Positions 15,895 to 57,712 of a DNA stretch of 64,000 bases are shown here, in pieces. Source of the stretch: a bacterium. Its GTDB lineage: Bacteria; Sumerlaeota; Sumerlaeia; MVZB01. The position numbers and the translations under genes were made by a program. The DNA lies in the NCBI GenBank assembly GCA_021372575.1, contig JAJFUE010000059.1, positions 16,359 through 80,358 of the forward strand, read 5' to 3'. Position 1 is the first letter of the stretch. Each line of letters begins with the position of its first letter. A model generated the notes under the pieces. It did no database searches. It was not told the origin of the DNA and saw only the letters and a list, made by a program, of their open reading frames with translations.

Positions 15895-18800
15895 TCAGAC
15901 CGTCTCGAAATAGATGAGCATTTCGCGCAAGATGCAGATTTGTTCACCGCTCGCCGGGGAGGCCGTAATCTTTGCCTGCCACAGGCAAGCACTGTTTTCT
16001 CCAATGTTGTCCTCGCCGCTGGGCGGCAGGGTGTACCACTCACCCCATGTGGCTCCGTTGTCAAACGAGCGGCGCGCCTGGATTGTGAGCAGCCCATCGC
16101 CGGCCGCTTGGATGGTGGCTTTGAGCGGAGTGATGAAATTTGCTTCGGCGAGAGTGATTGGAATCGTCGTGTAGGTCAGCGGCAGATGTGTCGTGTGCCA
16201 AGCGAGCCACGTATCCCATGTGGTATCACCCAGATTATCCCAAGTTGAAGTATCGATTGACTCGAGTTCGCCGACCTTGTCCACGCCGAGTGTGGCATTC
16301 ACGAAACAGTTGTCCCGAGTGCCGTTCCAGCCATTTGCCCGTTCGTCCTGGATGTAACAGCAATTGCCGGCATTGCTCGTAAACTGGGCCGTGATGATCT
16401 TGGCATTGACACTTTCGTTTCCGGCGCGGTCCATAGCCTTGATCCCGAAGGTATAAAGGCCGGCCTCGAACGGCCGTTCGGTCTCATACTGTGTTCCGGA
16501 AAGCAAACCGCTGTGGAGCGGATCGAGGTCGCTCCAGCCCCATGCCGCGTCTGATCCGGCACGATAACGGATCGAAACACCGGCGTAATCAGGCGGTAGG
16601 GTGTCGGCAAACACCCATGAATACCTGCGCCGGCCGCCCCATTGCTGGATTGCCCAGAACTGTTCCACATCGGGTGGAGGCGTCTGATCCCCCACGACAA
16701 CAACCGTTCTTTGGACCCAATCCGAGGCACGGCCCAAGCGCGTGACGCCGCGGACGCGAACGTCGTAGCTTCGCGTCTGCACGCCTCCGATCACGGCGCA
16801 CGGCCCGACGTTTGCCCACAGAACCTGTTGATACGGCGACTGCGACCCGGACGGCCGGATCGCGACCTGCATATAGTCGGCGCGCTCGAAATAAAGGCCG
16901 GACTCCCAGGAGAGGGCCAGAATGATTTGCGGGGTGTATGAACCATCGGCACCGATGAGCATCGCACGTTGATCGGTAATTACGTCTTGAATGATCGGCT
17001 TCTGGACGGGTTTTGTAACCTCCGGGTCCCACGTGATAAACGGATCGTAGGTTGGGATGTCGCCGTTTTCGGCATCGTAGATATCGGGCGCCGCAGGAAC
17101 GAGAAGCAATCGCGCCGTGAAATTGTCACCGGGAACGATCTCGCTCACGATGCACTCGATCGTCTCGCGCGTGGACTCGCCAAACATCCACAGGTCTCCT
17201 TCAGCGATCTCGCTAAAAAGCCCGGAAAGCACCAATTCGTGCGTTTCGCCCTGCTCGATATGCGTATTGGTTGCCGGCTGGAGAATAGACACCCCAGACG
17301 CCGTGCGGATGCGAATCGAGTAGTCCTTGCCCGTTTCGGTAATGACCGGCTCGTCGAGCGTGAGATACGTGCCCCCCAGATTAGTGTCGAGGCGGACCTG
17401 CTTGATCCTTCCTGTTCCGCCGCCGATTGAGGCAACATCATGGCTCAGGCGGACGAGGTCGCCGCGCTGGCAGACCAAGGATTCGACATCGACCATGATT
17501 GAAAACGCCTCGGGCCGAAGCCGCATCGCCGCAAGCGTGTAGCGCCCCCACTTCCAAGCCTCGGTCTTGTTCGTGATCCCCTTGGTCTCTAGGACCTGGT
17601 AGATCTGCGCGTTGGCTTCGCTGTAGCCGTCATCAAAAGCCGAGATTTCGCCTTGTTGGTTGTCATCGTCTTCATCGGCGTATCGCACGCGCATGGCGTG
17701 GGGGACTTCCTTAAAATCCTTCGTCCCTTGGAAATCCCAGGAATTTCGGGGTGTAAAATGCTGCACGGGAACGTCCTGGGCAATATCCTCCACGACCGAA
17801 TAAAGGCCGTCGCGCATGGTCGTTGATGCGCGGCCTACGGCGGCCACCGTGTTAAGGCTGTCCAGAACATTGCTCGCGAAATCGAAAACGAAATTGAACG
17901 ACCGGCCGGCAGTATTGCAGCGCTCATGCCAGGCTTCAAGGCGCGCAAGGTCGAGGCGGGTCGTGGCGATCGCGCGTTTGTTGTTGGCTCCCTGAATGAC
18001 GCCGCGCCAGCATGATGCAGGATTCGACGTGGGCCGCGGCTCCCAGTGGCCGGGAACAGGGTCGAGCGTCACGTATGAAGGGCCGTCGATAAGGCCGTCC
18101 GAGTTTTGGGCCATGATGTCATAGCCGTTGTCATCGTCGCTCGAACGGTCGCCACCCAAGTGGGGTTTTTCATCCCCGGAATTCCAAACCGAGCGCCTGA
18201 CCGTTCCACCGGACGAGACCACGTTGATGTTCTTGATCCACGCTTCGGTCTCGCCGCCACCGTTCAGTTCGCAGGCGATGAACCATTTCTCAATATCTTT
18301 GCCAACCAGCAACGATAGAGAAATCCGGCGCCGATACCATTTGTTGTCGGTGTATTGACTCAGATCGGTCCCTGGGTCAGCGTCTATGCCGTTCTGGTCA
18401 ACAGCGCCCATACCGCGCAATGTCTTGTCATCGTCCGTCTCGAGCTCGACGGCGATCTTGTTGTTCGTCGGCCCGGTCGTCGGCCAGTAAATGTCGTATT
18501 CGAGCACGTCGCCCGACTGGACCGTGTAATTGTCGATGTCCTTGATCCGGACGTAGTAGTAGCCGTCTTCGGCGGCGGGCTCCATCTGGAACGTGCAGTG
18601 CAGGGCGGCCGGATTGGGGCTTAGCGCCAGATGATTGCTGCCGGCGTAATCATAAGCAGTCGCACCGCTGACTTCATTCATGCGCCAGTAATTGATGAGG
18701 TTATCCTGGCGCGTGTCGATCGACGTGTCCTTGAGCGGCGTGAGGTCCGCCCCGTGCATGCCCTTGTCCCAAACCCTGAACTCGCGGAGCTGGCCTTTAA

Positions 18801-37375: not shown

Positions 37376-38116
37376 TCAGTGCTTCCAGGGAATATGCAGG
37401 GAGCGCTGGTTCTTGTGGATCGCTCCCTCGCGGGCAGAAATTGCATCGCCGAAGTACTCGCGCAGGACCCGGTTTGTGCGGGATTCGCTGTCGGCGTCGC
37501 GGTAAAGCCCCTGCCCGCCGGGATTGTTCATCGTTTCGTGTTGGACGAAGGCATAACGGGTGTCGATGAATGCCTTCCGGTGGAAATGGGCATTCAAGCC
37601 GGAGATGAAGAAGTCTCCACACGCCATGAGGCGTGTGGGGTAGTAGAGCTTTGAGCCGGCCAGAAGGCCGTAGCTCATGCCGTTGATGTAACCGCCCAGC
37701 GAGAACGGTTTCATCGGGTTGTAATACATGCAGACGGCGATATTGGAGAATCCGAAGAAATAAGCGCCGATGTCCTCGCACAGTTGCGCGGCCGTCTCGA
37801 TCGCGTCCTGGGTTTCATCTGGTGAGAGCCGCGGATACGTCGGCTCGCCGGGCTCGAACGAAATCTTTACAAACGCGTCCACGTCATCATCACAGTGGAA
37901 CAGATTGCCGAAATGTTCATACATCCACTGGAGCTTGGGCGGAAGACCTTTGACGCTGTCAGGGTGAACAACGATTTCCACGTTGGGGTAGTAGTCTTTA
38001 TAAACCGCTTCCTGGGACTCGGCCACACACAGGACCGGATGGACGAACAACCGGTGGGAAGAAACCCGGCCGGCGCGCCCATGCGTGGGAATGACGGTGT
38101 GGATCCGATCAGTCAT
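37376..38116 (-). CDS. Hypothetical protein with DxD motif (putative GT-A-like nucleotide-sugar transferase), start MTDRIHTVIPTHGRAG
   Basis: ..NLFHCDDDVDAFV.. DxD-like motif; ATGA overlap with ParB-like nuclease gene; fold assignment tentative. Confidence 0.35.
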   Translation of the reverse strand: MTDRIHTVIPTHGRAGRVSSHRLFVHPVLCVAESQEAVYKDYYPNVEIVVHPDSVKGLPPKLQWMYEHFGNLFHCDDDVDAFVKISFEPGEPTYPRLSPDETQDAIETAAQLCEDIGAYFFGFSNIAVCMYYNPMKPFSLGGYINGMSYGLLAGSKLYYPTRLMACGDFFISGLNAHFHRKAFIDTRYAFVQHETMNNPGGQGLYRDADSESRTNRVLREYFGDAISAREGAIHKNQRSLHIPWKH

Positions 38117-38796
38117 TCGAGCCCCAGTGCGGATTTGAATACTTGAAATGAAATCGCCCGTCCCTCGCCAACGGTCTTGGATTTGTTCGTGCGGCATTTC
38201 GTGATAGCGAGGATGGATTTGAGCCGCGTCCAGTCGAGGTCGTTTTCCGTGAAGATCACGACGTAGTTGTAGGACTCGTTGAGGCGCGCCACGAGCGGGT
38301 AGATAGGATTCTCTTTTTCGGATTCATCCTGCGGCTTATCAGAAGGGGTCTCGTCGGCTTCGCGTTCAAGATCACAAAACAGGCGGTTCAGGCCCACGTC
38401 ATCGACCATGAGTGGATCTTCGTCTTCGAGGCGGCTCAAAATTCCTGCGAGCCCATCGGTAAACTCCCCCGCGATGTGCGGGTTGTTGGCTTCGACCATC
38501 GCAGCATCGGCAACTGTTTCATCCCAGTCCACCACGCGAACCGGCCACGATTCGCCGGTTTCGGGATCGGTGATATGCGGCTCGGGTTCAAGTTCGAGCG
38601 TGGCGCCCTTCTCCATCAGCACATTCACCCGTTGGTGTCCGGCTACAAGAAAGCCGGTCCGCCGGTTCCACACGATCCCGGCGATGTTGCCGAAACGCCG
38701 CATGGACGCCGAAAGCCCACGGCGGCTTTCGCCGTCAATCGAGCGCGGGTTTTCGGGATGGGCCGCAAGGTCCTGGATGCTTGAGAGTTCGTGCAT
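38113..38796 (-). CDS. ParB-like nuclease domain (ParB/Srx N-terminal fold) protein
   Basis: ..LAAHPENPRSID.. and ..LVAGHQRVNVL.. motifs of the ParBc family; typical position upstream of small terminase. Confidence 0.6.
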   Translation of the reverse strand: MHELSSIQDLAAHPENPRSIDGESRRGLSASMRRFGNIAGIVWNRRTGFLVAGHQRVNVLMEKGATLELEPEPHITDPETGESWPVRVVDWDETVADAAMVEANNPHIAGEFTDGLAGILSRLEDEDPLMVDDVGLNRLFCDLEREADETPSDKPQDESEKENPIYPLVARLNESYNYVVIFTENDLDWTRLKSILAITKCRTNKSKTVGEGRAISFQVFKSALGLE

Positions 38797-40527: not shown

Positions 40528-41853
40528 TTGCGCGACGAAACCGACGAGACCAAGGCGGTTTACTCCAAAATCGTCGAGAACCTAAAAAAGCTCGCGCGCC
40601 TCGAGCCGGTTATGCATGGCTCGAGCGACTTTAAGCTGCGCCCGATCGCCTCCGAAGACGAAGTGCGTGCATTCGAGACGAAATACACGGTCAAGCTGCC
40701 CACCGAATACCGCAACTTCATTACACGTTGCGGGCGAGGCGGGGCCGGACCCGGTTATGGTTTGCTTGATTTCAAAGATCTCGAAATCGGATCGCTCGAA
40801 AAGCCGCCTAATTCCGAATGGTATCTTAAAGAAGCCTGGATTGGGGATCTCTCGAAACCTTTCCCATATGTGGAACCATGGAACATGGATGTGCCATATG
40901 AGGTGCTTGCGCAGAAAGACTCAGAGGAAAGCGACCGTGTGGTGGATCAATTTGGGGAGAAGTACTGGGCTCCGCTCGATGGCGCTTTTCCGGTCGCCCT
41001 CATCGGCTGCGGCTATTACTATTGGCTCGTAACGACCGGCCCCGAAGCCGGCCATATTTGGGTCGATAACCGCGCGGCAGATGGCGGGTTGCGTCCGCTC
41101 ATGCTACCCGGTCTGGAGCGCGTGACGTTCCTGTCGTGGTATCAAAACTGGATAGACAAGGCGTTTGCGGCGGCGGAGGAACAGGGCTTGCACGAGGAAA
41201 CCGAAGAGGCCAGGGCGATGTATGCACAGATCATAGCCGATGTGGAAACGCTCAAGCGCGCGAAGCCCAAAGTGTTCGGCGCGGATTCGCACGAATTCAA
41301 GCTCCATCCGCCCGTGCCCGAGTATGAAATCGCCGGTTTCGTACAGGATCATCACATCGAACTGCCCCAGGAATACCGCAATTTTCTGATGCGCTGCGGT
41401 CGCGGCGGCGCCGGGCCTTACTATGGACTTTTCGACTTTCACATGATGGACAACGGCTTCGGCCATGTGAAATGGAATGAAGGCGGCGACTTCGTCGGCA
41501 CACTTTCAAGACCCTTCCCGTTCACCGAGCCATGGAACGATCTCAGTAAGCATCCGGCCGACGAACTTTTGGAGCGTGATTGCGACGAGTATGACCGCCA
41601 GATGCAGGTGTTCGATCAATGTTATTGGGCGCCGATCGACGGGGCCATCCCGATCTGCCATCTAGGTTGCGCCCTGCGGCATTGGCTCGTGGTTACAGGG
41701 CCCGAAGCCGGCCACGTCTGGGCTGATCATCGCGCCGAAGAAGGCGGTCTGTTTCCCGTCACTAATAGCGGTGAGCGCGTGACGTTTCTCGGTTGGTACC
41801 GCGCCTGGCTCGACAAAGCCCTTGAGATCATGAAAAAAGAACAGGCTGAATAG
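40528..41853 (+). CDS. Tandem SMI1/KNR4 (SUKH superfamily) domain protein, 441 aa, internal duplication
   Basis: Two copies of the ..LP(T/Q)EYRNF(I/L)(T/M)RCGRGGAGP(G/Y)YGL(L/F)DF...YWAP(L/I)DGA(F/I)P.. block (residues about 50-200 and 270-430). Confidence 0.55.
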   Translation: MRDETDETKAVYSKIVENLKKLARLEPVMHGSSDFKLRPIASEDEVRAFETKYTVKLPTEYRNFITRCGRGGAGPGYGLLDFKDLEIGSLEKPPNSEWYLKEAWIGDLSKPFPYVEPWNMDVPYEVLAQKDSEESDRVVDQFGEKYWAPLDGAFPVALIGCGYYYWLVTTGPEAGHIWVDNRAADGGLRPLMLPGLERVTFLSWYQNWIDKAFAAAEEQGLHEETEEARAMYAQIIADVETLKRAKPKVFGADSHEFKLHPPVPEYEIAGFVQDHHIELPQEYRNFLMRCGRGGAGPYYGLFDFHMMDNGFGHVKWNEGGDFVGTLSRPFPFTEPWNDLSKHPADELLERDCDEYDRQMQVFDQCYWAPIDGAIPICHLGCALRHWLVVTGPEAGHVWADHRAEEGGLFPVTNSGERVTFLGWYRAWLDKALEIMKKEQAE

Positions 41854-42302: not shown

Positions 42303-42613
42303 CGTCAGTGATCCGTCACTGATCAATCACTGACGCGTCACTGACGAATCACTGATCGATCACGGATTGATCACTGACGCGTCAGTGACGCATCACTGAT
42401 TCGTCACTGATTGATCACTGATTTCTATAAACATTCTTATACGATCCAATTACCATTCAGGATACGAGCGGAGGCTTAACTCTTATAAACACAATGACCC
42501 GCATCGAATCACTGATGAATCACTGATTGATCACTGACGCGTCACTGATTCGTCACTGATCGATCACTGACGCGTCACTGACGAATCACTGATCGATCAC
42601 TGATCAATCACTG
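42303..42613. repeat. Iteron-like array: about 22 copies of an 11-bp unit (TCACTGA + 4-nt spacer) in two blocks flanking an AT-rich core (42422-42506); includes perfect 18-bp palindrome TCACTGACGCGTCAGTGA
   Basis: Direct reading: spacers drawn from cgcg, cgaa, tcga, ttga, tcaa, ttcg. Block 1 42303-42421 (11 units), block 2 42507-42613 (10-11 units). About 37-bp segment duplicated between blocks. Stops in all frames. Confidence 0.85.
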
Positions 42614-42645
42614 CAGGAACAGGGAACAGGGAAGGGAACAGGGAA
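42613..42645. repeat. Heptamer microsatellite (CAGGGAA/CAGGAA)n abutting iteron array
   Basis: caggaacagggaacagggaagggaacagggaa. Confidence 0.7.
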
Positions 42646-43026
42646 TATATTGTACATCCTAAAGGATGTTAGTCGTCACCGCCGCTTTCGCGGCTCCGGC
42701 GGCTGCGCCGCCCCCCTTCCTTTCATCCATTTCACCCGAGAAAATATTTTCTACGAATCCAAGAATATACAGACGCGGTAGAGTAGTACACCCTCCCCAG
42801 GGAAACCGATCGAAGCTCACGCAGAGTTTTTCGCGATTATTTCGCGTGAGCTAAAAATCTAAAATTATTCCTGCTTGTGAGCGGGCGGTTAAAAACCCAA
42901 CCAAACTCAAAGTTTTCCGCCGTAAAAAAAATTTCAAAATAGGGATTTACAAAAGCCCCCTGTCTGAAAGAAGCTACTCGCCATCATACGGTGGGCGTAT
43001 AGTCCACCACCCAAGGAGAGGACACG

Positions 43027-43785
43027 ATGAGCAACGAAACAATCACGATCGCAGACTGGATGCGCCGAGCCCCGAAACCGGTGGCCGAGCGATTCGACGC
43101 CGAGCGGCACGTCACGCTCGCCGATCTCTACGACCTGGCTCAGGACGAGATCAACCGCGCCGAGGACGGGCTGGTGAAACACCACCCGAGCACGATGAAG
43201 TCGCTGCGCCGGTTCGCCGACGACCTGCACGCGGCCGGAGCTCTGGAGCAGGGCAACGGAGCGGATAGCGGCGAGTATCCCGACGACTGGGCGATGAACG
43301 AGAACGAACCCGCCGCGCCTGTGATGGTCGCTACGGCTGATCCGGAGATCGCCACTGAGTCGACCGAAACCGAGCCGATCGCGGCCATGGCCGAAATTCC
43401 GGCTTTGGAAACCAGCAACGAACAAGCCCCGCAGATCGAGACCGAATCGCTAGTCGAACCCGCCGCGCCTGTTATTCCCACCGTCGCTGCCGCGACCGAG
43501 CTTGAGCCTGATTCAAGCGACGAAGGCCGCCGGAGCTCCCGCGCCGCCGCCTATCGCAATCAGGTCCGTGCCCGGCTTAAGGTCGATTTCCCGAACCTGG
43601 CGCTTCGCCGGGCCGAGTTCTCCGAGTCGCTGCTTCGGCCGCTCAATCGCAAATTCACGAAATGGGCCGATGAATCCGGCTCGGAGATGGCACTCAGCCT
43701 CGAAGGGGTGCTCGACCAGATCGGTGCGGCCAGCGAGCGCACGATCGACGAATTCACCGCCGCGTTCCTGGTCCAGACGGCCTGA
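43027..43785 (+). CDS. Acidic low-complexity hypothetical protein (first gene of early operon)
   Basis: AAGGAGAGG RBS; central E/D/P/A/T-rich segment. Confidence 0.45.
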   Translation: MSNETITIADWMRRAPKPVAERFDAERHVTLADLYDLAQDEINRAEDGLVKHHPSTMKSLRRFADDLHAAGALEQGNGADSGEYPDDWAMNENEPAAPVMVATADPEIATESTETEPIAAMAEIPALETSNEQAPQIETESLVEPAAPVIPTVAAATELEPDSSDEGRRSSRAAAYRNQVRARLKVDFPNLALRRAEFSESLLRPLNRKFTKWADESGSEMALSLEGVLDQIGAASERTIDEFTAAFLVQTA

Positions 43786-43797
43786 ACAGCGAAGCCG

Positions 43798-44436
43798 GTG
43801 AACCCACCGGAGAAGAACCCGAGAAAGAGGCGAAAATTCACGATGGAAGAACGCAGAACAAGACGCGGTTACGATTTCGGCGAAGTGGCGAGCGCTTTTC
43901 AAAAATCCGTGCGTCGGGGACTGCTCGACGACGCCCTCTACTGGGGCGTGGAGCTTTACCTGTCCGGCTTTCACGAATACGCCTGGAAACGAATGCGCGT
44001 GATGTGCTCGGAGGATATCGGACCGGCCGAGCCGAGCCTCCCCGCCCAGATCGCCGGGCTCTACGCGATGTTTCGGCAGTTCCTGGAATCCAAGCCGAAA
44101 CGGACCGGCGCGATGGGCTCGGAGAAACTCTTTTTCGTCCACGCGATCATGCTTCTCGTCCGCGCCCGCAAATGCCGGATCGTCGATCACGCGAATATTT
44201 ATCATTTCCGCGCTCATGACCAGATTCAGCGCCGCGAGATTCCCGATTGGGCTTTGGACAAGCACACCTATCGCGGCAAGCGCATGGGCCGCGGCATCGA
44301 TCACTTTTTCGAGACCGGAACGCTGCTCGAGAATCGTAGCGCCGAAATCGAGGACGTGTATCGCGACCGCGCAATGGAGTGGGCCGATATCGAAATGCCC
44401 ACGCAAGATGCCACAGGGCAGCTTGAGATGTTTTAA
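43798..44436 (+). CDS. Hypothetical protein (212 aa)
   Basis: ORF track, operon context; no motif recognised. Confidence 0.45.
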   Translation: MNPPEKNPRKRRKFTMEERRTRRGYDFGEVASAFQKSVRRGLLDDALYWGVELYLSGFHEYAWKRMRVMCSEDIGPAEPSLPAQIAGLYAMFRQFLESKPKRTGAMGSEKLFFVHAIMLLVRARKCRIVDHANIYHFRAHDQIQRREIPDWALDKHTYRGKRMGRGIDHFFETGTLLENRSAEIEDVYRDRAMEWADIEMPTQDATGQLEMF

Positions 44437-44495
44437 ACGCAAAATCCTCCGCAACTGCGGATGGAAAACTAGCCAACGGAGAGGAGAACCGTGAC

Positions 44496-46277
44496 ATGGC
44501 AATTGCAGCAAGAAATCGGGCGGACGATCTGCCCGAAGAACCGGCGCCGCCGGAGACCGAATCGATCCTCATGATCGATCTGGACAGGATCGAGCCTTCG
44601 CCCAAAAACCCGCGCCGCTTCCGCGACGGCGTGCGCGATCCGAAAATCCGAGAGATCGCCGAGTCGATCAATGCGGTAGGGGTCCTGCACCCGATTCTTG
44701 TCCGGCCGGTGAACAGCCATTACGAGATCATGGCCGGGGAGCGCCGCTGGCATGCCTCGCGCCTTGCCGGCCGGCCGACGATCCCCGCGATCGTGCGCGA
44801 GCTCGACGATAAGGCCGCCCTGGAAATCACCGTGATCGAGAACATGCAGCGCGAGGACCTGCACCCGATCGAGGAAGCGCGCGGTCTCAAGGAACTGCTC
44901 GACGCCGGTTACACCGCCGAGGATGCGGCCGCCCGGCTCGGCAAATCGACCGCCTGGATTTCGTGCCGGGCTCAGCTGGCCAAGCTCATTCCCGAGTTCG
45001 CTTCGGCGATGTCGGGCGAGGATGAAAACATCAACCTCACGGGCTGGAGCGTGAGGGCGATGGAGTTGGTTGCCCGCCTGCCCGAATCCACGCAAAAACT
45101 CCTTTGGGGCAAATTCTTGGAACACGCTGAATCGAATCAGAACGTCGAGCGAATCGAGCAAGCCACGACGAAAACGGTCGAGATGATCGTCGCCCGTTTC
45201 ATGCTCGATCTCAAAACCGCGCCGTGGGAGATGGACGCATGCTTTGGCGATTGTCCCGTGTGCGCCCAGTGTTCAAAGCGCAGTCAAGCCCAGCCCGATC
45301 TTTTCGGGGGCGATGAGGACGAGGACCGCTGCCTCGACCCGCAGTGCTGGGAGAAGAAATCCGACCTCTACACCGAGCAACTCGTAGTTCAAGCCGAGCG
45401 CGATTATCCGGGCATCTTGAAGGTCAGCTCCGATTATCAGACCGACTTGCCCGGCGTGCTCGGATACCAGCACTACACGATCAGCCGCGAGGGAGCCGAA
45501 GGCGCCGTCCCGGCCGTGGTTGTCGAGGGCCGGTCACCGGAAATGATTTGGGTGAAGGTCGATTCGGGCGAACGTTCGCGCAAGGCCGTTGCAAACGTAA
45601 CCGGCGAGAAGCAAGACGAGTCCACCCGGATCGCCGCCCGAAAGGCGCAGTACGACAAGCTCCGCCGCCGGATCGTGATGGACCTCATGGCGACAAAGCT
45701 CAAGGACCTTGTCGAAGATGGCGTGGGTCCCACTTGCGCCGTGACACCGCAGAAAATGCTCGCCTGCATCCTCGCAACCGGCCTGCCATATTCCCATCTC
45801 TCGACGATGGATTATGCGAGTCCCTGGCCAATCGTTCAGCGCAATCTGGACAAGTCCGAGGGCGAGCTCATGATGGACCTCGCCTTGCAGATGGCCGAGT
45901 CGTTCAACAAACGCCTGCACTCGTTCTATGACGAACCGAAGTGGGGTGAAGCGCTTGCGCTCTCGGAGCTGTTCGGGATCAAGCTGGACGCGCTGCTTCG
46001 GGAAGCGGCCGTTCAGAAACCATATCCCAAGTCCTGGCGTGCCCAGGCCGAGTCGTTGCCCCCAAGCCCGATCCCCGAGCGGGCTTTGTATTCGAACCCT
46101 GAGTCCCGTCATCCCTTCGAACCCACGAGTGAGAGCGACGAACCCACCGAAACCGAATCAGCCGATCCCGATGAAATGGCGGAGGACGGCCAACCCGACG
46201 AGGAGTGGGAGGACGAGGAACAGGACGATTACGAGGAAGAAGATTACGAGGAGGAGGGCGACGATGATGAAGACTGA
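44496..46277 (+). CDS. ParB/Spo0J-family N-terminal domain protein (593 aa) with Cys-rich (Zn-finger-like) middle region and poly-acidic C-terminal tail
   Basis: ..IEPSPKNPRRF..GVLHPILVRP..YEIMAGERRWHASRLAG..IPAIVREL.. ParB box motifs; CFGDCPVCAQC...CLDPQCW; C-terminus EEWEDEEQDDYEEEDYEEEGDDDED; GGAGAGGAGAA RBS. Confidence 0.6.
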   Translation: MAIAARNRADDLPEEPAPPETESILMIDLDRIEPSPKNPRRFRDGVRDPKIREIAESINAVGVLHPILVRPVNSHYEIMAGERRWHASRLAGRPTIPAIVRELDDKAALEITVIENMQREDLHPIEEARGLKELLDAGYTAEDAAARLGKSTAWISCRAQLAKLIPEFASAMSGEDENINLTGWSVRAMELVARLPESTQKLLWGKFLEHAESNQNVERIEQATTKTVEMIVARFMLDLKTAPWEMDACFGDCPVCAQCSKRSQAQPDLFGGDEDEDRCLDPQCWEKKSDLYTEQLVVQAERDYPGILKVSSDYQTDLPGVLGYQHYTISREGAEGAVPAVVVEGRSPEMIWVKVDSGERSRKAVANVTGEKQDESTRIAARKAQYDKLRRRIVMDLMATKLKDLVEDGVGPTCAVTPQKMLACILATGLPYSHLSTMDYASPWPIVQRNLDKSEGELMMDLALQMAESFNKRLHSFYDEPKWGEALALSELFGIKLDALLREAAVQKPYPKSWRAQAESLPPSPIPERALYSNPESRHPFEPTSESDEPTETESADPDEMAEDGQPDEEWEDEEQDDYEEEDYEEEGDDDED

Positions 46278-46653
46278 TAAACTCACAGCGCCCGAAATTG
46301 CATCGCGGCTCTCCCAGTTCATCGGCACTGAGAACTACTGGCGCCACTGGACCGGTGCGCTGGTCTATACCGACGGCGTGAAGGCGATGGCGGAAATGTG
46401 CGGGGCGTTCTGGCTTATCGACGCGATCGCCTCATGGCAACCGACGTGCCGCCGCGACGAGATGCTGCGTGAAATGCAGTTCTGGATCCTGAGACGCTTC
46501 GACGATCAGAAATGGGTTCTCGAAGTCGAACGCGACGAAGGCGATGTCGCTTTTCATCAGGAGATCGAGTTCAGCGATTTCCCGCTCCGTGAAATCAAGC
46601 TGTGGGTTCAGGCTGGGAGCCCGATGGTCCTGATGTTGCCCAGCGAGTATTGA
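46264..46653 (+). CDS. Hypothetical protein (130 aa; start MMKTDKL overlapping ParB stop)
   Basis: The N-terminal part of track ORF 45928-46653 is an alternate-frame overlap of the ParB gene with junk composition; the protein-like sequence begins at 46264. Confidence 0.4.
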   Translation: MMKTDKLTAPEIASRLSQFIGTENYWRHWTGALVYTDGVKAMAEMCGAFWLIDAIASWQPTCRRDEMLREMQFWILRRFDDQKWVLEVERDEGDVAFHQEIEFSDFPLREIKLWVQAGSPMVLMLPSEY

Positions 46654-46780
46654 TCGAAGACACGATTCAGCACACTCAAATTAACCCGATCCATTTTTGA
46701 ACCCGAGTCACTGCCTGATTCCAAACACACGGAAACGGGGTTGTAGAACCCTGCACAAAATTCAGAAAGGAACCCGAACG

Positions 46781-47098
46781 ATGAACGAATACATAAGCAT
46801 CGGTCCCGCGCCGCCCGGAGAGCCCTGTGCGCAAGTCGGCCAACCGGGCTACGAAGAACAGGCTCTGGCGGAATGCCGCCGCTATGTTGCCTTGCTTCGG
46901 CAGTATTTCGGCGAGGAGCCGCCCGGCGCGCGCCTGGCCGTCAAAAGCTTCCCCCACGATTTCGGCTCCTATTACGAAGTCGTCTGCTGGTACGACCGGA
47001 AGAAAAAGAAATCGATGGATTATGCCTTCCGCTGCGAAATCAACGGCCCCGCGACATGGGACGCGGGCGTGGAAATTCAGAAACCGGAGGTGGCCTGA
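46781..47098 (+). CDS. Hypothetical protein (105 aa; start MNEYISIGP)
   Basis: AAAGGAA RBS 8 nt upstream of ATG at 46781. Confidence 0.4.
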   Translation: MNEYISIGPAPPGEPCAQVGQPGYEEQALAECRRYVALLRQYFGEEPPGARLAVKSFPHDFGSYYEVVCWYDRKKKKSMDYAFRCEINGPATWDAGVEIQKPEVA

Positions 47099-47099
47099 C

Positions 47100-47897
47100 A
47101 TGTTGATCACGAAGGAACTGATCAAGGCCATGATCCCGTTTGCTCCCAAGAAAGACCTGCGCCGCGCGATCAAAACTGTCCGCTTGGAACGCAGTGCCGG
47201 CCAGGCTCGCGCTGTCGCCACGGACGGCAAGATCATGATGATCACCGAGTGGAAGGAGCCGTCGCCTGACGATGTGCCGCAGGTCGTGAGCGAGATCGAA
47301 GGCGAACGTCACGACATGGAAATGAGCATCGACGCTCAGGACTGGTCGGCACTGGCGACGATGGTTCCCAAGATGCGAACGTTGCCGGCCCTCGAGGTAG
47401 TGGCCATTGCCGAACGGATCAATGATCACCGCCTGGAAGTCGGCTCGACCGATTTCGACAACGAACAGCGCCGGCAGGTCCGCCCCGTGGAGATGAGTTA
47501 TCCCGATTACCGCTCCGTCCTGCCGCAGTACCAGATCGAGGGTGAGGACGCCAACGCGGTCGCATTGCTTGTGAACGCCGAGAAGCTCGCGGTCTTGCTC
47601 AAAGGTTTTCAGGATTCCGGATGCGTCGGGCGCACGCATGGTGAAGTGCTCATGGTCGTGCCCATTCACGCGCAGAAACCGATCCTCTTTCGAGGGTGGA
47701 ATCTTGAGAAGAGCATCGACGCGACCGCGATCATCACGCCCGTTCTTGACTGCGCCACGAAGCGCTCGTGGATGTTCTCCAACCGGGCATTCGATCCCGA
47801 GCCGAGCGATGACACCCCCGAGCAGGAAGATGTTCCCGCGCCTGACGAACAGGCGGGCGAAGAAACGAGCGAACCCCCACTTGCCGCCACTGCATGA
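47100..47897 (+). CDS. Sliding-clamp (DnaN beta-clamp)-like protein with only two clamp-type domains and acidic tail (265 aa)
   Basis: ..AVATDGKIMMI.. (compare DnaN ..VATDGHRLAV..), ..YPDYRSVLP.. (compare DnaN ..FPDYRRVLP..), C-terminal ..ITPVL.. (compare ..VMPMRL). Starts at TGACATG overlap. Real start internal to track ORF 46827-47897. Confidence 0.45.
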   Translation: MLITKELIKAMIPFAPKKDLRRAIKTVRLERSAGQARAVATDGKIMMITEWKEPSPDDVPQVVSEIEGERHDMEMSIDAQDWSALATMVPKMRTLPALEVVAIAERINDHRLEVGSTDFDNEQRRQVRPVEMSYPDYRSVLPQYQIEGEDANAVALLVNAEKLAVLLKGFQDSGCVGRTHGEVLMVVPIHAQKPILFRGWNLEKSIDATAIITPVLDCATKRSWMFSNRAFDPEPSDDTPEQEDVPAPDEQAGEETSEPPLAATA

Positions 47898-47929
47898 TGG
47901 CGGCCACTACTCCCAAAAGGAAAATAGTC

Positions 47930-49000
47930 ATGAAAACAGGACGAAGCCTCAGTGAAATCGCCGCTGAACTTGAGCGGCAGCAAAATGCCAAACGCGACTT
48001 CATCGCGGACACGCGCAAGATCGCGATGGAAATTCACGAAGCCGAACCGGTCGCCGGCGCGATGCTGCGCTTCGGCACGAACGGCCACACCGAGCGGTTC
48101 CCGATCACGGAGATTTGCCACAGGCAGATTGGCGATCGAGTCGGCATCCCCGACCGCTACTACAACAGGATGCTCGCCGAAGCGCCCGGCCTGCTCACCA
48201 CGAACGTGAATCACTGGTTTGAGGAGTGCCCCGAAATGCGTATGGTCCGCACGCTCGACGGCCGGGCGAGAGCGTTCCTCTCGAACCGCTACCGCCCCCT
48301 CGATAATTTCGACCTCGCCGAAGTTGTCCTGCCGATTTTGATGCAATCGGGATGCGAGATCGTCTCGACCGAGATCACCGAACGCCGTTTTTACCTCAAA
48401 GCCACGACGGACCGGATCCAGGGCGAAGTGGCCAAGGGGGACGTGGTTCAGGCCGGGATCGTTGTGAGCAACAGCGAGGTCGGCCTCAGCAGCCTTCGCG
48501 TTCAGGGCCTCATTTACCGCCTTGTCTGCACGAACGGCATGATCGCACCCGATTCTTCGCTGCGCCAGAAACACATCGGCCGATCCGGCTCAAGTAACGA
48601 GGAAGCATTCGAGCTTTTCAGCGATGAAGCGCGAATTGCTGATGACCGGGCGTTCTGGCTCAAGGTTCGCGACGTAGTCCGTGGCGTGATGACGGAAGAA
48701 ATCTTCAACGTCCTCATCGGCAAGCTCCGCGATGCCCGCGGCCAGAAAATCGAGCGCGATCCGCTGGAAGTGGTCGAACTGACCGCCCGGCGTTACTCGC
48801 TCTCCGATGGCGAGCGCGGCGGCGTCCTGCGTCACCTCATCGCGGACGGCGATTTGAGCCGCTACGGTCTCGTGAACGCCATCACTCGCACGTCTCAGGA
48901 TTCCGAATCCTATGACCGGGCGACCGAACTGGAATCGCTCGGCGGCCAGATCCTTGAACTGGAGCCTAACCAGTGGCACACGCTCGCATGCGCGGCCTGA
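47930..49000 (+). CDS. DUF932/DUF945-family phage/plasmid-associated protein
   Basis: ..AFLSNRYRPLDNFDLAEVVLPIL.. and overall layout typical of the DUF932 family common in ICEs and prophages; AAAGGAAAA RBS before ATG 47930. Confidence 0.5.
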   Translation: MKTGRSLSEIAAELERQQNAKRDFIADTRKIAMEIHEAEPVAGAMLRFGTNGHTERFPITEICHRQIGDRVGIPDRYYNRMLAEAPGLLTTNVNHWFEECPEMRMVRTLDGRARAFLSNRYRPLDNFDLAEVVLPILMQSGCEIVSTEITERRFYLKATTDRIQGEVAKGDVVQAGIVVSNSEVGLSSLRVQGLIYRLVCTNGMIAPDSSLRQKHIGRSGSSNEEAFELFSDEARIADDRAFWLKVRDVVRGVMTEEIFNVLIGKLRDARGQKIERDPLEVVELTARRYSLSDGERGGVLRHLIADGDLSRYGLVNAITRTSQDSESYDRATELESLGGQILELEPNQWHTLACAA

Positions 49001-49061
49001 ACGCCGCCCCAGGGGGCGCGGCCTGGCATGAAACGCGCACTCTTTTTTCGAGAGGTTTTCC

Positions 49062-49361
49062 ATGCGAGTTCTCAATCAAAACTCAGTCGCTGAAATGGCC
49101 GCGCCGTACTTTGCAAACGTCGAAAGCATTCGCGCGCACCAAGTGGCCGTTTACGTGATGTGTGGCGGGGGATTCCTGGGCCAGTTCGCCGCCCAGCGCC
49201 CTGCGGATTTTTACATCGACGGCCGTGTGAGCGGATTGCCATATTCACGCCGCAAGATCAGTCAGGCCGTCAATACACTCGCGACGCTGGCCCGGTGTGC
49301 GGGCATGGATCCCCGCCATCTGCCGCCTTCGCCGGCGTTTCACAACTGCGGGATTTTCTAA
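49062..49361 (+). CDS. Hypothetical protein (99 aa)
   Basis: ORF track; weak RBS. Confidence 0.3.
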   Translation: MRVLNQNSVAEMAAPYFANVESIRAHQVAVYVMCGGGFLGQFAAQRPADFYIDGRVSGLPYSRRKISQAVNTLATLARCAGMDPRHLPPSPAFHNCGIF

Positions 49362-49375
49362 CCGGAGGTCGCTCA

Positions 49376-49593
49376 TGATCACCGCGCATTACGACGCGTA
49401 CGGCTACTGGATCGAATCGGACGGCCTAGAAATCTACCGCGCCGGCAATCACCCACTGGATTCGGCGGCCTATACCGCCGAAGGCGCCCTGAGCCTTCCC
49501 ACTATTCGGGCCTATGCACAGCAAACAGCAAAAGAGCTCGCCGCCGAACGCAGCGAGCCCTATGTCGGGATCGAACACATGCGGGAGTGGTAA
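49376..49593 (+). CDS. Hypothetical protein (72 aa; start MITAHYD)
   Basis: GGAGG RBS before ATG 49376. Confidence 0.35.
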
Positions 49594-49595
49594 GC

Positions 49596-50252
49596 TCAGT
49601 GGAACTTCAATCCGCCACGCACAAGCCCGTAGAGCTTTGCCTTTTTAGGCATCGGCATCGGGTAGATGGACGGCGTGAGGCCGATCAAGAACGCCATCTC
49701 GGCGGTCGACCCGACAATCTTGATCGCATATCCCTCGCCGGGGATTTCGATGATGATCTGCTTGCCCGACGCCGGCATCGCCGTGGTCGGTTCGACGAAC
49801 ACGATGTCCCCGGCCTAGTAGTGAGGCGCGAGGGCTTTGCCACCGACCTGCAAAGCGACCATTTCTCGGTCGACGCCGGAGAGGAACAGATTATACATCG
49901 ACCAAGTGATCGATACCGAATCCTTGGATTCTTCATTGATCGAAACGAAGTCGGCAGCACGGCTGCGCGTTTTGCCGGCCGCGATCTCGCCGATGATGGG
50001 AATTTCAGTCGTCTCGCCCTTGATCTCTTCGCCGATGAGGTCCTTGACGCTCATTCCGAGCGAGCTGGCGATCTGCTCGATTTTATCGTCGGTCGGGAAG
50101 CGCACACCGTTTTCCCAATGAGAATACAGCGAAACGGTCACGGCGAACCGGCGCGCCATGTCTTTTTGCATGAGCTTGCGGTCCTTCCGGTAATGCTTGA
50201 TCACGTACCGGAAATGATCCTTGACCGCTGTGGAGACACCGCGCTCGAGCAT
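49596..50252 (-). pseudogene. cI/LexA-like repressor (XRE HTH + S24-like domain) interrupted by in-frame TAG (49815-49817) and lacking the catalytic Ser (GGKAL instead of GDSM)
   Basis: ORFs 49815-50252 and 49596-49802 are in the same frame, separated only by TAG. Translation ..LQVGGKALAPHY*AGDIVFVEP..IKIVG..KLYGLVRGG follows the LexA C-domain layout. GGAGG RBS before ATG 50252. The N-terminal 145 aa product may still act as repressor. Confidence 0.5.
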
Positions 50253-50498: not shown

Positions 50499-50753
50499 AT
50501 GAACCAGCCACCACGAACCCGCCGAGTGTTCGATCCATCGCTCCTCAAATCGGCCCGTGAACGCGCCGGCATGACTCAGCACGAGCTTTCGACCCGTTTG
50601 GTCGAGCGCGAGGTCTCCACCGGAGTTCAGCGCGAAATGATTTGGCAGTGGGAGAACGGAGCGCGCATTCCGCGCGCCGTGGCTTTGGCCAATATGGCCG
50701 ACATTCTGGGCGTCTCGCTCGATTCGTTTTTCAGGCAAGAGGAAGTGGCCTAA
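50499..50753 (+). CDS. Cro-like XRE-family HTH regulator
   Basis: ..RAGMTQHELSTRLVEREVSTGVQREMIWQWENGARIP..LANMADILGVSLDSFF HTH_XRE pattern; divergent from repressor. Confidence 0.6.
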   Translation: MNQPPRTRRVFDPSLLKSARERAGMTQHELSTRLVEREVSTGVQREMIWQWENGARIPRAVALANMADILGVSLDSFFRQEEVA

Positions 50754-50757
50754 CACG

Positions 50758-51672
50758 ATGCGTATCCGCACGATCAAGCCCGAGTTCTGGACGTCGCTGG
50801 ACATGGCCAAGGTCAGCGAGCCGGCTCTTATCCTCGCGGTCGGCCTCCTGAACTACGCCGATGACAAGGGCTACTTCGTCGCCGATGCACGCCTGATCCA
50901 TGGGGCGCTTACACCGCTGCGTGAGCTTTCGCGGCCGATCATGGAATGCTTGGGGGAACTTCGGGAGGCGGGCTTCATAAACCTCTGCACGGGCACGAAT
51001 GGCCGCCCGTATGGGCATGTCGTAAATTTCCTCAAGCATCAAACCATCAATCGGCCCAAGGCGAGCAGGATTGCGCCGTTTTGGTCCGACACGCCCCTGG
51101 ACTGTGGAGATAGTCGGCAGGTCACGGATATACCGATTCCCGTGTGTTCCTCGGCTGTTCAAGTAAATGAAACGGTTCCGGCCGATACCGAAATCGCTTC
51201 TGTCACTGAACCGACACCGGATGAACCCGCTATACCCAGTGAACCGGAGCTTGCCAGTTCATTGGCGTCTGCCGCTGAAGTCACACTGTTCAGCGATGAG
51301 CCTGAACCCGAACCGGAAGCACCGAGAGAGCCTGAGCAACCGAAAAGCCACTGGATCATGGAGCTTTGGAACGCTCACGCGCCGACCGCCTTGCCGCGTT
51401 GCACAACCTGGTCCAAAAAACGCCAGACGGCAGCGAGGGCTCGGCTCAAGGAGTATCCAGATCGCGGCCATTGGCAACAGGCCATCGAGTCCATCGCGGA
51501 TTGCCCGTTCCTGATGGGTCAGAACGACCGGGGCTGGAGCGCCAGTATTGACTGGCTCCTGCTTCGGCCCGACTCGATCACGAAAATTATGGAAGGACAC
51601 TATCGATGCCGCGGGCGGCCGCCCGCGCTCGTCGGATCATCCATCGCCGGCGAGGGAGATCTGAGTTTCTAA
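50758..51672 (+). CDS. Replication initiator / replisome organiser-like protein, probable
   Basis: Position immediately upstream of DnaC-like loader; N-terminal ..IKPEFWTSLDMAKVSEPALILAVGLLNYADDKGYF.. winged-helix-like; acidic Pro-rich linker. Confidence 0.35.
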   Translation: MRIRTIKPEFWTSLDMAKVSEPALILAVGLLNYADDKGYFVADARLIHGALTPLRELSRPIMECLGELREAGFINLCTGTNGRPYGHVVNFLKHQTINRPKASRIAPFWSDTPLDCGDSRQVTDIPIPVCSSAVQVNETVPADTEIASVTEPTPDEPAIPSEPELASSLASAAEVTLFSDEPEPEPEAPREPEQPKSHWIMELWNAHAPTALPRCTTWSKKRQTAARARLKEYPDRGHWQQAIESIADCPFLMGQNDRGWSASIDWLLLRPDSITKIMEGHYRCRGRPPALVGSSIAGEGDLSF

Positions 51673-51693
51673 ACTTGAAGGGAGGTGAAAGCA

Positions 51694-52398
51694 ATGCAGG
51701 AGAACACGGCACGAGTGATTGAACTGGAAGAAGAACCCGAACCCCGCGATCCGTTCAGCGATCCGGCATATCTGCGGAACTGGCTGATCGAGAACGACAT
51801 GATCGCGGCCGGCATCCCGAAACGGTTTCGTCCTGGGTTTGCAGCCTACGAAGAGAGAACTCCCGAATGCGCGTTCCTGCGTCGGAAAGCGCTGGCCTGG
51901 GCAAACGAATTCGATCCGCGTGACCCAACGAAAGGTTTTGCCCTGACCGGCGTGACAGGCGCGGGCAAGACGCACCTGGCCGCGGCGATCGCGCGGCGAT
52001 TGATCGAGCGTCGATGCTCGGTGATGTGGGTCAACACGGCCGCGCTGTTCATGCGCATCCGGTCCACCTACGGACACGACAGCGATGAGAGCGAAGAGGA
52101 CTTGATTGATGAGCTGGTCGCACCTGATCTGCTCGTCCTCGACGACCTCGGGGTCGAGCGTCCTACGGCCTGGGTCCTGGAGCGGCTTTACGTGATCCTC
52201 AATCGCCGCCACGAGGAGTGCAAGGTGATCATGTTCACTTCCAATTACGATGGCAGGGAACTGACCGAGCGCCTTCGCACGCCCGAAGCCGGGGACCTGG
52301 CCGACCGCTTGATCTCGCGATTGGTCGGCATGGTCGAGTCGATCGGCGATTTTCCAAAGAAGGATTGGCGCAAGGAAGCCTGGAGGCAACGCCAATAA
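51694..52398 (+). CDS. DnaC/IstB-like AAA+ helicase loader
   Basis: Walker A GVTGAGKTHLAAAIA, Walker B LLVLDDLG; GGGAGG RBS before ATG 51694. Confidence 0.7.
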   Translation: MQENTARVIELEEEPEPRDPFSDPAYLRNWLIENDMIAAGIPKRFRPGFAAYEERTPECAFLRRKALAWANEFDPRDPTKGFALTGVTGAGKTHLAAAIARRLIERRCSVMWVNTAALFMRIRSTYGHDSDESEEDLIDELVAPDLLVLDDLGVERPTAWVLERLYVILNRRHEECKVIMFTSNYDGRELTERLRTPEAGDLADRLISRLVGMVESIGDFPKKDWRKEAWRQRQ

Positions 52399-56437: not shown

Positions 56438-57712
56438 ATGTCGGCTGAAAAAGAAACGACCACGCTCGTAGAAAAAATTGGAATTGTAACAATTCGTTCC
56501 GGTGTAAGCCCCCAGAAATCGAAGGGTTTCTGGGTCCTTGAATATCGTTGCCCAGCGGCTTACCCCGGTGATCCCAATCGAGGCCGTCGGATTCGGCGGC
56601 GGATCGATCATGAGGCGATGTCTCTGGCCGATGTACGAAAGACGGCTGATCATCTCACAGCACAAGCATACCAGGGTAAAGGGTATCTACCTGAGCGAGA
56701 TGAAAAAGGGAAAGGGACTACTATCCAGGATGGAATTATTGAAGCACTCAGGCTGACGAACACTTTACCCGAAGTCCGCAAAGAACGTGCGCGCCTCGCG
56801 CTTCGGTTTGTTGAATGGCTTGCCGTGAATTACCCGCAAGTTCAGACTTGGGATCAAATGAGGCCGGCGGTGCTTCAAGACTACGTGCTGCATTTGGAAT
56901 CAAATAAACTCGCGTTCGACACAGTGAGATTGGCGATCGCCCCTATAAAATTGGCGTGGAGGCACATGGCGGACAATTTTCCGGATACTGTTCGGCCCCT
57001 ACCGCGCATTCGTCAGAAACCGGCCCCGAAGAGAGAGATCGACTGTCTCGATGCCGATGACGTTGCCGCGTTGCTGGAATGGCTTAAAAAACATGCGCCC
57101 GATATCTGGCCTCTCGCGATGCTGCAAACTCTGGCCGGTTTACGAATGCTGGAGACGGCTGCTTTGCGCCGCCAGGACGTAAACCTGAAGCAAGGGACAA
57201 TCAGGATCACGAATACGCCGAATCACTCTGTCAAAACAGCCACGAGTGATCGGCTGATACCTATCTGTAAAGAGGTTCGCAGTTGTTTGAAATCGGAGCT
57301 TGCGAATCAGAAGGTGTTTCCGAAGACCGGTGAGATATTCACAAATACAAAGGGCAATCCATGGACAAAGAATGCCTTGGGTTGGAAGTGGAATCGCCTT
57401 CGGAGTAAGCTGGATAAAAAATCGGGAAAGCCGATGATTGTGCTTCAAACGGGGCGCGCCGCATTGGCCGATTTCCAACCGCATCGTCTCCGCGCTTCGT
57501 TCGCGACGATGGCCGGCCGATTGGGAGTTGCAGATAGACTGCTTCAGGCGTATATGGGACATGCGCCGGTCGATGTTCTTGGAGCGCACTATCGCAAGAT
57601 CGGACTCGAGGATTTGAAAGCGGTGTCACAGAAGATGGATAAATGGGGCAACTTAAAGGCTGTTGGTCAAAAACGGGCAAAAAAAGCTCGGCCGGCTTCA
57701 CGAAAACACTGA
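56438..57712 (+). CDS. int: Tyrosine integrase (phage integrase family)
   Basis: C-terminal catalytic region ..HRLRASFATMAGRLGV..LLQAYMGHAPVDVLGAHY (R..H..R..Y); adjacent to tRNA fragment. Confidence 0.8.
   Translation: MSAEKETTTLVEKIGIVTIRSGVSPQKSKGFWVLEYRCPAAYPGDPNRGRRIRRRIDHEAMSLADVRKTADHLTAQAYQGKGYLPERDEKGKGTTIQDGIIEALRLTNTLPEVRKERARLALRFVEWLAVNYPQVQTWDQMRPAVLQDYVLHLESNKLAFDTVRLAIAPIKLAWRHMADNFPDTVRPLPRIRQKPAPKREIDCLDADDVAALLEWLKKHAPDIWPLAMLQTLAGLRMLETAALRRQDVNLKQGTIRITNTPNHSVKTATSDRLIPICKEVRSCLKSELANQKVFPKTGEIFTNTKGNPWTKNALGWKWNRLRSKLDKKSGKPMIVLQTGRAALADFQPHRLRASFATMAGRLGVADRLLQAYMGHAPVDVLGAHYRKIGLEDLKAVSQKMDKWGNLKAVGQKRAKKARPASRKH

Follow-up and report, generated by a model that had tools for sequence, protein, structure and literature searches.

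Orphan ParB-CTPases are common and often reside on mobile elements, with approximately 1% of parB homologues being encoded by prophages (PMC12704722). On such elements they are only now being recognized as regulators rather than segregation factors, and KorB and BisD provide precedents for regulatory clamps that work independently of ParA (PMC11790492; PMC12409273). Use of the host sliding clamp by phages outside replication has just been shown for Mu, in which QPDLF, the consensus of the Mor/C family, is a validated C-terminal clamp-binding motif of the activator MuC (PMC12867686). A cassette that would join these two themes is described here from a 64-kb window (the whole stretch of DNA that was analysed, positions 16,359 to 80,358 of contig JAJFUE010000059.1; all positions below are counted from its first letter), which holds a lambda-like siphovirus prophage of an uncultured bacterium. 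It consists of an array of TCACTGA heptamers followed by nine open reading frames (ORFs) on the plus strand, g1 to g9 (43027-49593; Table 1). Among their products are an orphan ParB (g3), a truncated homologue of the sliding clamp DnaN (g6) and a homologue of the C-terminal domain of RarA/MgsA (g2). Array and genes make up a self-contained accessory cassette of the temperate, lambda-like prophage, the array being its cis-acting part and the nine genes its operon. The reading preferred for its function, held with somewhat less than even confidence, is that a ParB/array complex working without ParA is coupled to a module for clamp interaction.

Array and operon constitute one unit, since both are kept together in a related metagenomic contig (L001) in which the left flank is different. 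Homology between the window and L001 (84.7% nucleotide identity over 7.25 kb) sets in only ~50 bp to the left of the array; genes further left differ. An initial annotation of this DNA had placed nine co-oriented genes between the array and a convergent repressor; the ORFs were confirmed, and gene calls recover all nine genes in unchanged order in L001 and in two further near-identical or related metagenomic contigs, L039 and L002. All eight operon genes that can be compared with L001 are conserved. Synonymous codon changes exceed non-synonymous ones in seven genes, and the counts for g2 (33 against 5) and g7 (102 against 17) indicate strong purifying selection. The two kinds of change are about equally frequent in g1 (45/42) and g5 (17/16), which together with g6 are the faster evolving genes. 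Two features of the gene layout concern g6 directly: g5 ends 1 nucleotide (nt) ahead of it, so that the two may be translationally coupled, and an ATG for g7 at 47894 overlaps its stop codon, although gene callers start g7 at 47930. For g2, the start at 43843 is the likely one, as it is the start found in relatives.

The product of g6 is a genuine DnaN homologue that, judged by its alignment and predicted fold, is cut down to domain II and the C-terminal half of domain III. On its own, the sequence matches dnaN weakly (TIGR00663, 3.4e-4; phrog_947, 2e-3). A word-indexed homologue search returned only five relatives, to which a profile run through the same index added nothing useful, whereas an exhaustive HMMER profile search yielded at least 334 representative clusters (50% identity) at E <= 1e-3. 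Among the best 150 of these clusters, most members are 200-240 amino acids (aa) in length and align from residue 1 to ~215. A profile of 60 family sequences matches solved beta clamps at 9.5e-14, and 14 of the 60 match Pfam DNA_pol3_beta_2 individually. Alignment of the family to DnaN with hhalign gives a probability of 99.1% and an E-value of 2e-18, and the homology to DnaN noted in the initial annotation is upheld. The best-conserved positions of the g6 family include motif residues: R21, T41, D42, G43, P135, M213 (T in g6) and P214 are conserved in 81-97% of members and A40 in 77%, and g6 itself retains the ATDG, PDYRSVLP and TPV(L) motifs. R21, ATDG, P135 and M213-P214 are taken to correspond to R152, T172-G174, P242 and M362-P363 of Escherichia coli beta, which line the protein-binding cleft.

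The extent of the truncation can be read from the model and the alignment together. An AlphaFold2 model built from the 60-sequence alignment reached a mean predicted local distance difference test score (pLDDT) of 87.4, compared with 33 when five close homologues were used. In this model, residues 1-215 form three beta-alpha-beta-beta-beta motifs with three helices, equal to 1.5 clamp domains, and residues 216-265 form a disordered acidic tail that ends in LAATA. The first two motifs, through PDYRSVLP, align to central DnaN through its own PDY motif, a stretch that by the E. coli domain boundaries would be domain II and the II-III linker. One large gap then skips the stretch before the last motif of DnaN, which by the same boundaries would be the first half of domain III. 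The third motif (~151-215) aligns to the last beta-alpha-beta-beta-beta motif of DnaN and ends at the C-terminal MP, while the N-terminal third of DnaN is without a counterpart. The whole arc superposes rigidly on DnaN. The ring of E. coli beta closes where the last strand of domain I meets the first half of domain III; by this comparison, g6 would lack both sides of the canonical interface. The initial annotation was right to relate the protein to DnaN, but its count of about two clamp domains does not stand, and with it falls the proposed trimeric PCNA-like ring: with three motifs per subunit rather than two full domains, a trimer gives nine motifs and cannot supply the 12 of a clamp ring.

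Most members of the g6 family stop right after the MP motif, as do the aligned DnaN sequences. Many of the longer members carry acidic linkers, and several share a recurrent C-terminal CxxC...CPxC zinc ribbon. Long members with tails of these kinds include P0015, P0022, P0028, P0029, P0035, P0053, P0061, P0113, P0033 and P0016; the C-terminal extensions of long members have no Pfam domain match, and they look like interaction modules. The tail of P0033 ends in DEEIPF, which resembles the C-terminal tip of single-stranded DNA-binding protein, and the distant relative P0016 ends in LAATA, as g6 does. Close relatives of g6 were not found in a scan of IMG/VR, nor did tblastn against phages and plasmids find any; a search with the family consensus recovered only two unannotated contigs and the full-length DnaN of phage 16-3. 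Short phage proteins of 172-266 aa carry a beta-clamp annotation in BFVD, and the RusA-like label attached to phrog_3007 was rejected. No paper describing such short DnaN-like phage proteins was found in the literature searched.

Genomic neighbourhoods were also inspected for the family. The closest out-group relative of g6, P0006, lies in a long co-directional operon (L005, 399-10335) in which an AAA_5 ATPase and proteins of DUF3150 and DUF2201 are encoded upstream of it; directly downstream is a helicase (Helicase_C_2, with faint DEAD/ResIII matches). Neighbouring proteins of 135 and 212 aa in L005 were considered as relatives of g5 or g2 and found to be unrelated. Other short-DnaN neighbourhoods hold small unknown ORFs only.

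The ParB homologue g3 has the full set of ParB boxes, as initially annotated. It matches ParB_N (PF02195, 1.3e-25), the helix-turn-helix (HTH) domain HTH_ParB (PF17762, 1.4e-07; 32 bits vs a threshold of 22.6) and TIGR00180 (129 bits vs a cut-off of 58.45), and CTP boxes I-III are intact (PKNPR, GERRWHA and ENMQREDL). Its best solved relative is Spo0J of Thermus thermophilus (9.5e-35; 1vz0 residues 21-182), and KorB is matched too. The reported lack of a ParA partner was borne out, with no KGGxGK[ST] deviant Walker A motif anywhere in the 64 kb, and the ParA-binding motif [LFI]G[KR]G[LFI] is absent from g3. The protein is ordered as ParB_N, HTH, C4 zinc ribbon, a family-specific C-terminal domain (YPKSW) and an acidic tail, and has no match to a Pfam C-terminal dimerization domain. 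The best NCBIfam model, PRTRC ParB (TIGR03734), was rejected: g3 is not a PRTRC member, because it scores half of the cut-off (138.6 vs 278.6 bits) and covers the N-terminal half only (profile positions 6-254 of 555). No other operon protein matches an NCBIfam PRTRC model.

At E <= 1e-10, g3 has ~1,080 matches among database proteins, and many of the top ones are 540-600 aa long and aligned over 80-90% of g3. These long relatives occur in Phycisphaerales, Verrucomicrobiales, Acidobacteriota, Burkholderiales, Bacteroidota and other groups. Across 33 aligned sequences, C256, C259, R262, L269, F270, C279, C284 and K288 are invariant; since all four cysteines are, the cysteine cluster noted initially is a conserved C4 zinc ribbon of long orphan ParBs. 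It follows the motif CxxC-[PS]KRS-xx-xPxLF-(variable acidic loop of 7-19 residues)-DxCLDxxCW, and the region has no Pfam or PDB counterpart. The acidic tail is equally real (29 D/E among the last 45 residues) but is limited to close relatives of g3, with most other members ending in basic tails. No conserved neighbourhood emerged across 30 genomes with long zinc-ribbon ParBs. A jackhmmer search of those loci yielded no additional homologue of g1, g2, g7, g8 or g9, and its only new match to g5 (in L024) failed confirmation by BLASTP. Some long ParBs (P0157, P0159, P0179, P0223 and P0228) carry extra Cys-rich insertions or C-terminal zinc-finger-like segments; an insert of ~50 aa right after the loop LF of P0157 shows that the loop tolerates large insertions. 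In a metagenome-assembled genome of Phycisphaerales (L003, 5561-15651), the long zinc-ribbon ParB adjoins a faint DUF932 gene, a ParA-like CbiA gene lies 3.6 kb off, and the vicinity also encodes HigB, an ImmA/IrrE-like protein and a ThiF/Multi_ubiq/BubE cluster. This region looks like an integrative element.

The array provides the putative site for g3. TCACTGA occurs 27 times as exact copies in the window, compared with 5.9 expected, and 19 of the 27 are inside 42305-42603. In total, ~20 heptamers, split into two blocks by an A+T-rich spacer, keep a strict 11-bp register, a spacing that places successive sites on nearly the same helix face. In block 1, two heptamers are inverted, giving 18-bp palindromes such as TCACTGACGCGTCAGTGA, and one more register position is occupied by the variant TCACGGA; the spacer holds TATAAACA twice. 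The heptamer, the two-block layout and the distance to g1 (~425 bp) all recur in L001, whose array differs from that of the window by indels of exactly 11 bp. TCAC/GTGA is also part of the chromosomal parS core, which is a lead only. Directly 3' of block 2, at 42614-42645, begins a leader with five copies of GGGAAC(A), the final ~85 nt of which ahead of the g1 ATG are identical in L001. The stretch 42640-43030 folds more stably than shuffled sequences (RNA fold z-score of -4.8). A promoter and terminator scan located no promoter in the leader, and Rfam returned only spurious sub-threshold microRNA-like matches on array and leader, caused by the repeats.

Two peptides in the operon resemble clamp-binding motifs. 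The first ends g2, whose similarity to RarA/MgsA is confined to the C-terminal helical domain (PDB 3bge, 3.7e-5; 3pvs, E. coli MgsA residues 248-313); a search for the AAA+ core found no Walker A motif. Its C-terminus, QLEMF-COOH, is present in all three orthologues, and among 1,599 six-frame ORFs of the window and six related loci just one other, spurious, ORF ends in Qxx[LMI]F. Actinophage homologues of g2 end in related G-x-(L)-x-F peptides. Two of them, Arthrobacter phage Kitkat gp80 (L043, 3935-4654) and Microbacterium phage ClearAsMud gp89 (L044, 2992-3612), are named 'AAA-ATPase', which may be a mis-annotation because 239 and 206 aa look too short for an AAA+ core. The second peptide is QPDLF, held by the zinc-ribbon loop of g3 (residues 266-270). 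The L and F of this loop are invariant throughout the long-ParB family, and the loop length after them varies.

In the preferred reading, g3 would load on the array and act as a ParA-independent, CTP-switched DNA clamp resembling KorB, BisD, VirB or Noc, organizing or regulating phage DNA around the operon instead of segregating it. g6 would serve as a docking module or decoy for proteins with clamp-binding motifs, not as a processivity ring. Its candidate ligands, chosen by motif resemblance, are the C-terminal QLEMF of g2 and the QPDLF of the g3 zinc-ribbon loop, and both peptides could bind the host beta clamp too. The operon might thereby couple the ParB-array complex to the host replisome or clamp network, or buffer the complex from that network. 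A more far-reaching proposal is that short DnaN proteins constitute an undescribed phage 'clamp-pocket' class, built as non-canonical, face-symmetric D2 tetramer rings or acting as soluble decoys or adaptors that capture clamp-binding motifs. In this cassette, such a protein would work with an orphan ParB in which the QPDLF loop is functional in clamp binding and with a QLEMF RarA-tail protein, the array being a ParB-loaded platform coupled to the sliding-clamp network; this is doubtful as a whole.

Several observations weigh against coupling of the ParB-array complex to a clamp-interaction module. The proposed contacts are inferred from sequence motifs. In the ParB-family motif, Pro at position 2 is found in 69 of 80 sequences compared with Gln at position 1 in 38 of 80, and a structural role in the zinc ribbon fits at least equally well because Pro and LF are better conserved than Gln. 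At 30 other genomic loci, long zinc-ribbon ParBs occur without a short DnaN, so any ParB-g6 link must be lineage-specific or the motif aimed at the host clamp. The match of g2 to Pfam MgsA_C reaches 24.6 bits, under the 27-bit threshold, and the conservation tests are low in power because identity among the orthologues is high (78-97%). Heptamers repeated directly every 11 bp differ from the classical palindromic parS, and the array binder could be another protein of the operon. Finally, the open edge of the modelled g6 half-domain may drive oligomerization into a ring.

This last point leads to the alternative that g6 is a working sliding clamp closed in a novel way, for example as a D2 tetramer or a hybrid ring, with a role in replication or in transcription as for T4 gp45. 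Four subunits of three motifs would give the 12 of a clamp ring, the arc superposes rigidly on DnaN, and the unpaired half-domain is in need of a partner. The family consensus is Lys-rich at the positions of the three g6 helices, and related short phage proteins are annotated as sliding clamps. However, elements of the canonical interface would be missing by comparison with E. coli beta, neither clamp loader nor polymerase was found in the phage, and g6 is itself acidic with a second helix devoid of basic residues. A functional ring is considered improbable. An anti-defence or early takeover operon, comparable to plasmid leading regions, would cast g1 as a DNA mimic, the ParB as a nuclease type and DUF932 and the remaining proteins as anti-restriction factors. 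Such a role is suggested by the acidity and fast evolution of g1, by the co-occurrence of DUF932 and ParB-like genes on integrative elements such as L003, and by a DUF932 gene under selection after phage challenge (10.1101/2025.06.20.660599). Yet no operon protein matches PADLOC or anti-restriction families, and g3 is of the Spo0J/KorB kind with HTH and CTP boxes, the nuclease-type ParB of this phage being encoded separately (38113-38796). The initial annotation had also proposed g1 as a DNA mimic or anti-restriction factor: its acidity stands (isoelectric point of 4.47, net charge of -23), while the proposed function finds no backing in Pfam, PHROGs, NCBIfam or PADLOC. Mimics of the Ocr or ArdA kind were rejected for g1 both for want of a family match and for the location of its acidity, which is in a low-complexity linker (~residues 76-165, between short terminal regions), not a folded mimic. 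The anti-defence explanation is accordingly given little credence.

Two further alternatives centre on the array. It could be the centromere of a partition system for an episomal phage state, segregated by a host ParA or by none. A ParB with full CTPase boxes and an HTH domain does adjoin a centromere-like array, the two-block layout of which resembles R1 parC, where two repeat blocks flank a central spacer (PMC2241845). Against this, ParA was not found in the 64 kb and g3 is without a ParA-binding motif; the phage has a tyrosine integrase and sits inside a 115.5-kb contig in which G+C content shifts near 12 and 58 kb, and lambda-like O/P-type replication genes are present. Partition is therefore unlikely, and the initial interpretation of the operon as a partition and replication-accessory module was probably wrong in this respect, though the link between an accessory module and the array is upheld by their conservation together in L001. 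Alternatively, the array may be a replication origin, with iterons and an A+T-rich unwinding element, and the operon a set of replication accessory factors. Two iteron-like blocks flanking an A+T-rich 87-bp spacer would fit, as would the DnaN-like and RarA-like proteins, but ~8 kb, including the immunity region, separate the array from the genes of the O-like initiator and DnaC-like loader, and in L001 the array travels with the operon rather than with replication genes. The origin of lambda lies within its initiator gene, which also speaks against this explanation, and an origin here seems very unlikely. Overall, the initial observations were largely right and their interpretation partly so, in recognizing an accessory module with a ParB and a DnaN relative.

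The remaining operon genes add less to the argument. No match was found for g1, g5, g8 or g9 in Pfam, PHROGs, NCBIfam or PADLOC, and PADLOC gave zero families for g1-g9 as a whole. g4 encodes a DUF6876 protein (PF21781, 5.9e-40; 136.4 bits vs 27), a family that received no mention in the literature searched. g7 is a DUF932 protein (PF06067, 4.8e-10; 40 bits vs 23), as initially identified, and DUF932 is uncharacterized in the same literature. It cannot be held to be a hallmark of conjugative elements alone, given the match of g7 to the phage family phrog_1362 (1.1e-50). Both DUF932 and the g2 family have phage relatives and the cassette is found in phages, leaving the 'plasmid/ICE-like' label (integrative and conjugative element) of the initial annotation weak.

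The phage that carries the cassette is lambda-like, with late genes, immunity region, replication genes and integrase (Table 1); none of its genes in the window encodes a DNA polymerase, clamp loader or ParA. The prophage lies inside the 115.5-kb contig. G+C content steps near 12 kb from ~0.50 on the left to ~0.58 in the phage, and dips at 56-58 kb, and no att-like direct repeats of >=13 bp were found between the presumed prophage ends. Searches at the DNA level found no related phage or plasmid beyond short stretches of ParB and DUF932. The CI-like repressor gene contains an in-frame TAG at 49815-49817 (..APHY*AGDIV..) in the window. The near-identical contig L039 has TCG at this position, giving a repressor gene of 218 aa; the TAG could mark a variant with a defective repressor, reflect polymorphism in the population or stem from a choice made in assembly. 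As it encodes a second protein with a ParB-N domain, the phage has two unrelated ParB-fold kinds. The SUKH protein between late operon and array looks like a moron or immunity-type insertion, since it is missing from the related phage L001.

Table 1. Positions of the cassette and of other prophage features within the 64-kb window.
Feature	Position	Strand	Description
Late genes	~12.2-39.4 kb	-	Central tail fibre J, tape measure, major head, portal, large terminase
Second ParB-N-domain protein	38113-38796	-	Short; phrog_620/498; nuclease or methyltransferase-associated type; upstream of terminase region
SUKH protein	40528-41853	+	Two-domain SMI1/KNR4 (SUKH) protein; between late operon and array
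Array block 1	42305-42421	+	10 exact TCACTGA, 11-bp register
Spacer	42422-42508		87 bp, A+T-rich; kept in L001
Array block 2	42509-42613	+	9 exact TCACTGA and partial TCACTG, all direct, 11-bp register
Leader	42614-43026	+	GGGAAC(A) x5, then ~380 nt; kept in L001
g1	43027-43785	+	252 aa, acidic
g2	43798 or, more likely, 43843-44436	+	197 aa from 43843; RarA/MgsA C-terminal domain homologue
g3	44496-46277	+	593-aa orphan ParB
g4	46264-46653	+	DUF6876 protein, 129 aa; 14-nt overlap with g3 end
g5	46781-47098	+	105 aa
g6	47100-47897	+	Truncated DnaN homologue; NCBI protein LLG95_05475
g7	47894 or 47930-49000	+	DUF932 protein, 368 or 356 aa
g8	49062 or 49095-49361	+	99 or 88 aa, small, basic; kept in L001
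g9	49375-49593	+	72 aa, last gene; ends 2 nt before repressor stop
CI-like repressor	49596-50252	-	HTH and S24-like C-terminal part; converges on operon, outside it
Cro-like HTH protein	50499-50753		Divergent from CI-like repressor
O-like replication initiator	50758-51672		
DnaC/IstB-like loader	51685-52398		
RecT-like annealing protein, then DUF2800/PD-(D/E)XK nuclease	between DnaC/IstB-like loader and integrase		
Tyrosine integrase	56438-57712		

If the proposed contacts are real, the cassette would offer a tractable system for learning how the beta-clamp interaction hub is tapped or poisoned by mobile elements, and what a ParB without ParA does in a phage. If they are not, g6 would still be a clean case of a protein that is readily mis-annotated as a 'processivity factor' while unable to build the canonical DnaN ring. 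With bacterial DnaN it shares homology in sequence and fold and the conserved ATDG, PDYRxV(L/I)P and C-terminal MP motifs, but it has 1.5 of the three domains and an added disordered acidic tail, and so falls short of the three complete domains per subunit of a head-to-tail dimer ring. The two-domain trimeric clamps PCNA and T4 gp45 differ from g6 in that half of its second domain is missing and in its sequence affinity, which is to DnaN and not to them. Short phage 'beta clamp' proteins, such as those of Rhodococcus phage REQ2 (G9FGZ4) and Gordonia phage Horus and those of phrog_3007, are similar in length and fold; their annotation assumes a processivity factor, and they are tied to g6 by fold or weak profile matches only. 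g2 resembles the C-terminal helical domain of RarA/MgsA and differs in being only 197 aa long, without the AAA+ ATPase module, and in its C-terminal QLEMF.

The regulatory side of the cassette compares most closely with KorB of RK2, BisD of ICEclc, VirB and Noc. In common with these, g3 has a ParB_N fold with boxes I-III and an HTH domain, is carried by a mobile element lacking a cognate ParA, and has candidate binding sites close to its operon. It differs in its C4 zinc ribbon with a QPxLF loop and its ~250-aa family-specific C-terminal region, in having phased direct heptamers, rather than a palindromic operator, as its putative site, and in that no KorA- or BisC-like partner is recognized. 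The R1 parC/ParR centromere shares the two short phased direct-repeat blocks around a spacer, upstream of an operon, and its repeat unit is 11 bp; here, in contrast, neither the ribbon-helix-helix protein ParR nor ParM was detected, and ParB is the sole recognizable DNA binder of the operon. The Mor and MuC activators of Mu, which recruit the host clamp, provide the parallel for a phage DNA-binding protein with QPDLF, although the motif stands at the terminus of a small activator in MuC and, as a putative clamp-binding peptide, in the zinc-ribbon loop of a ParB in g3.

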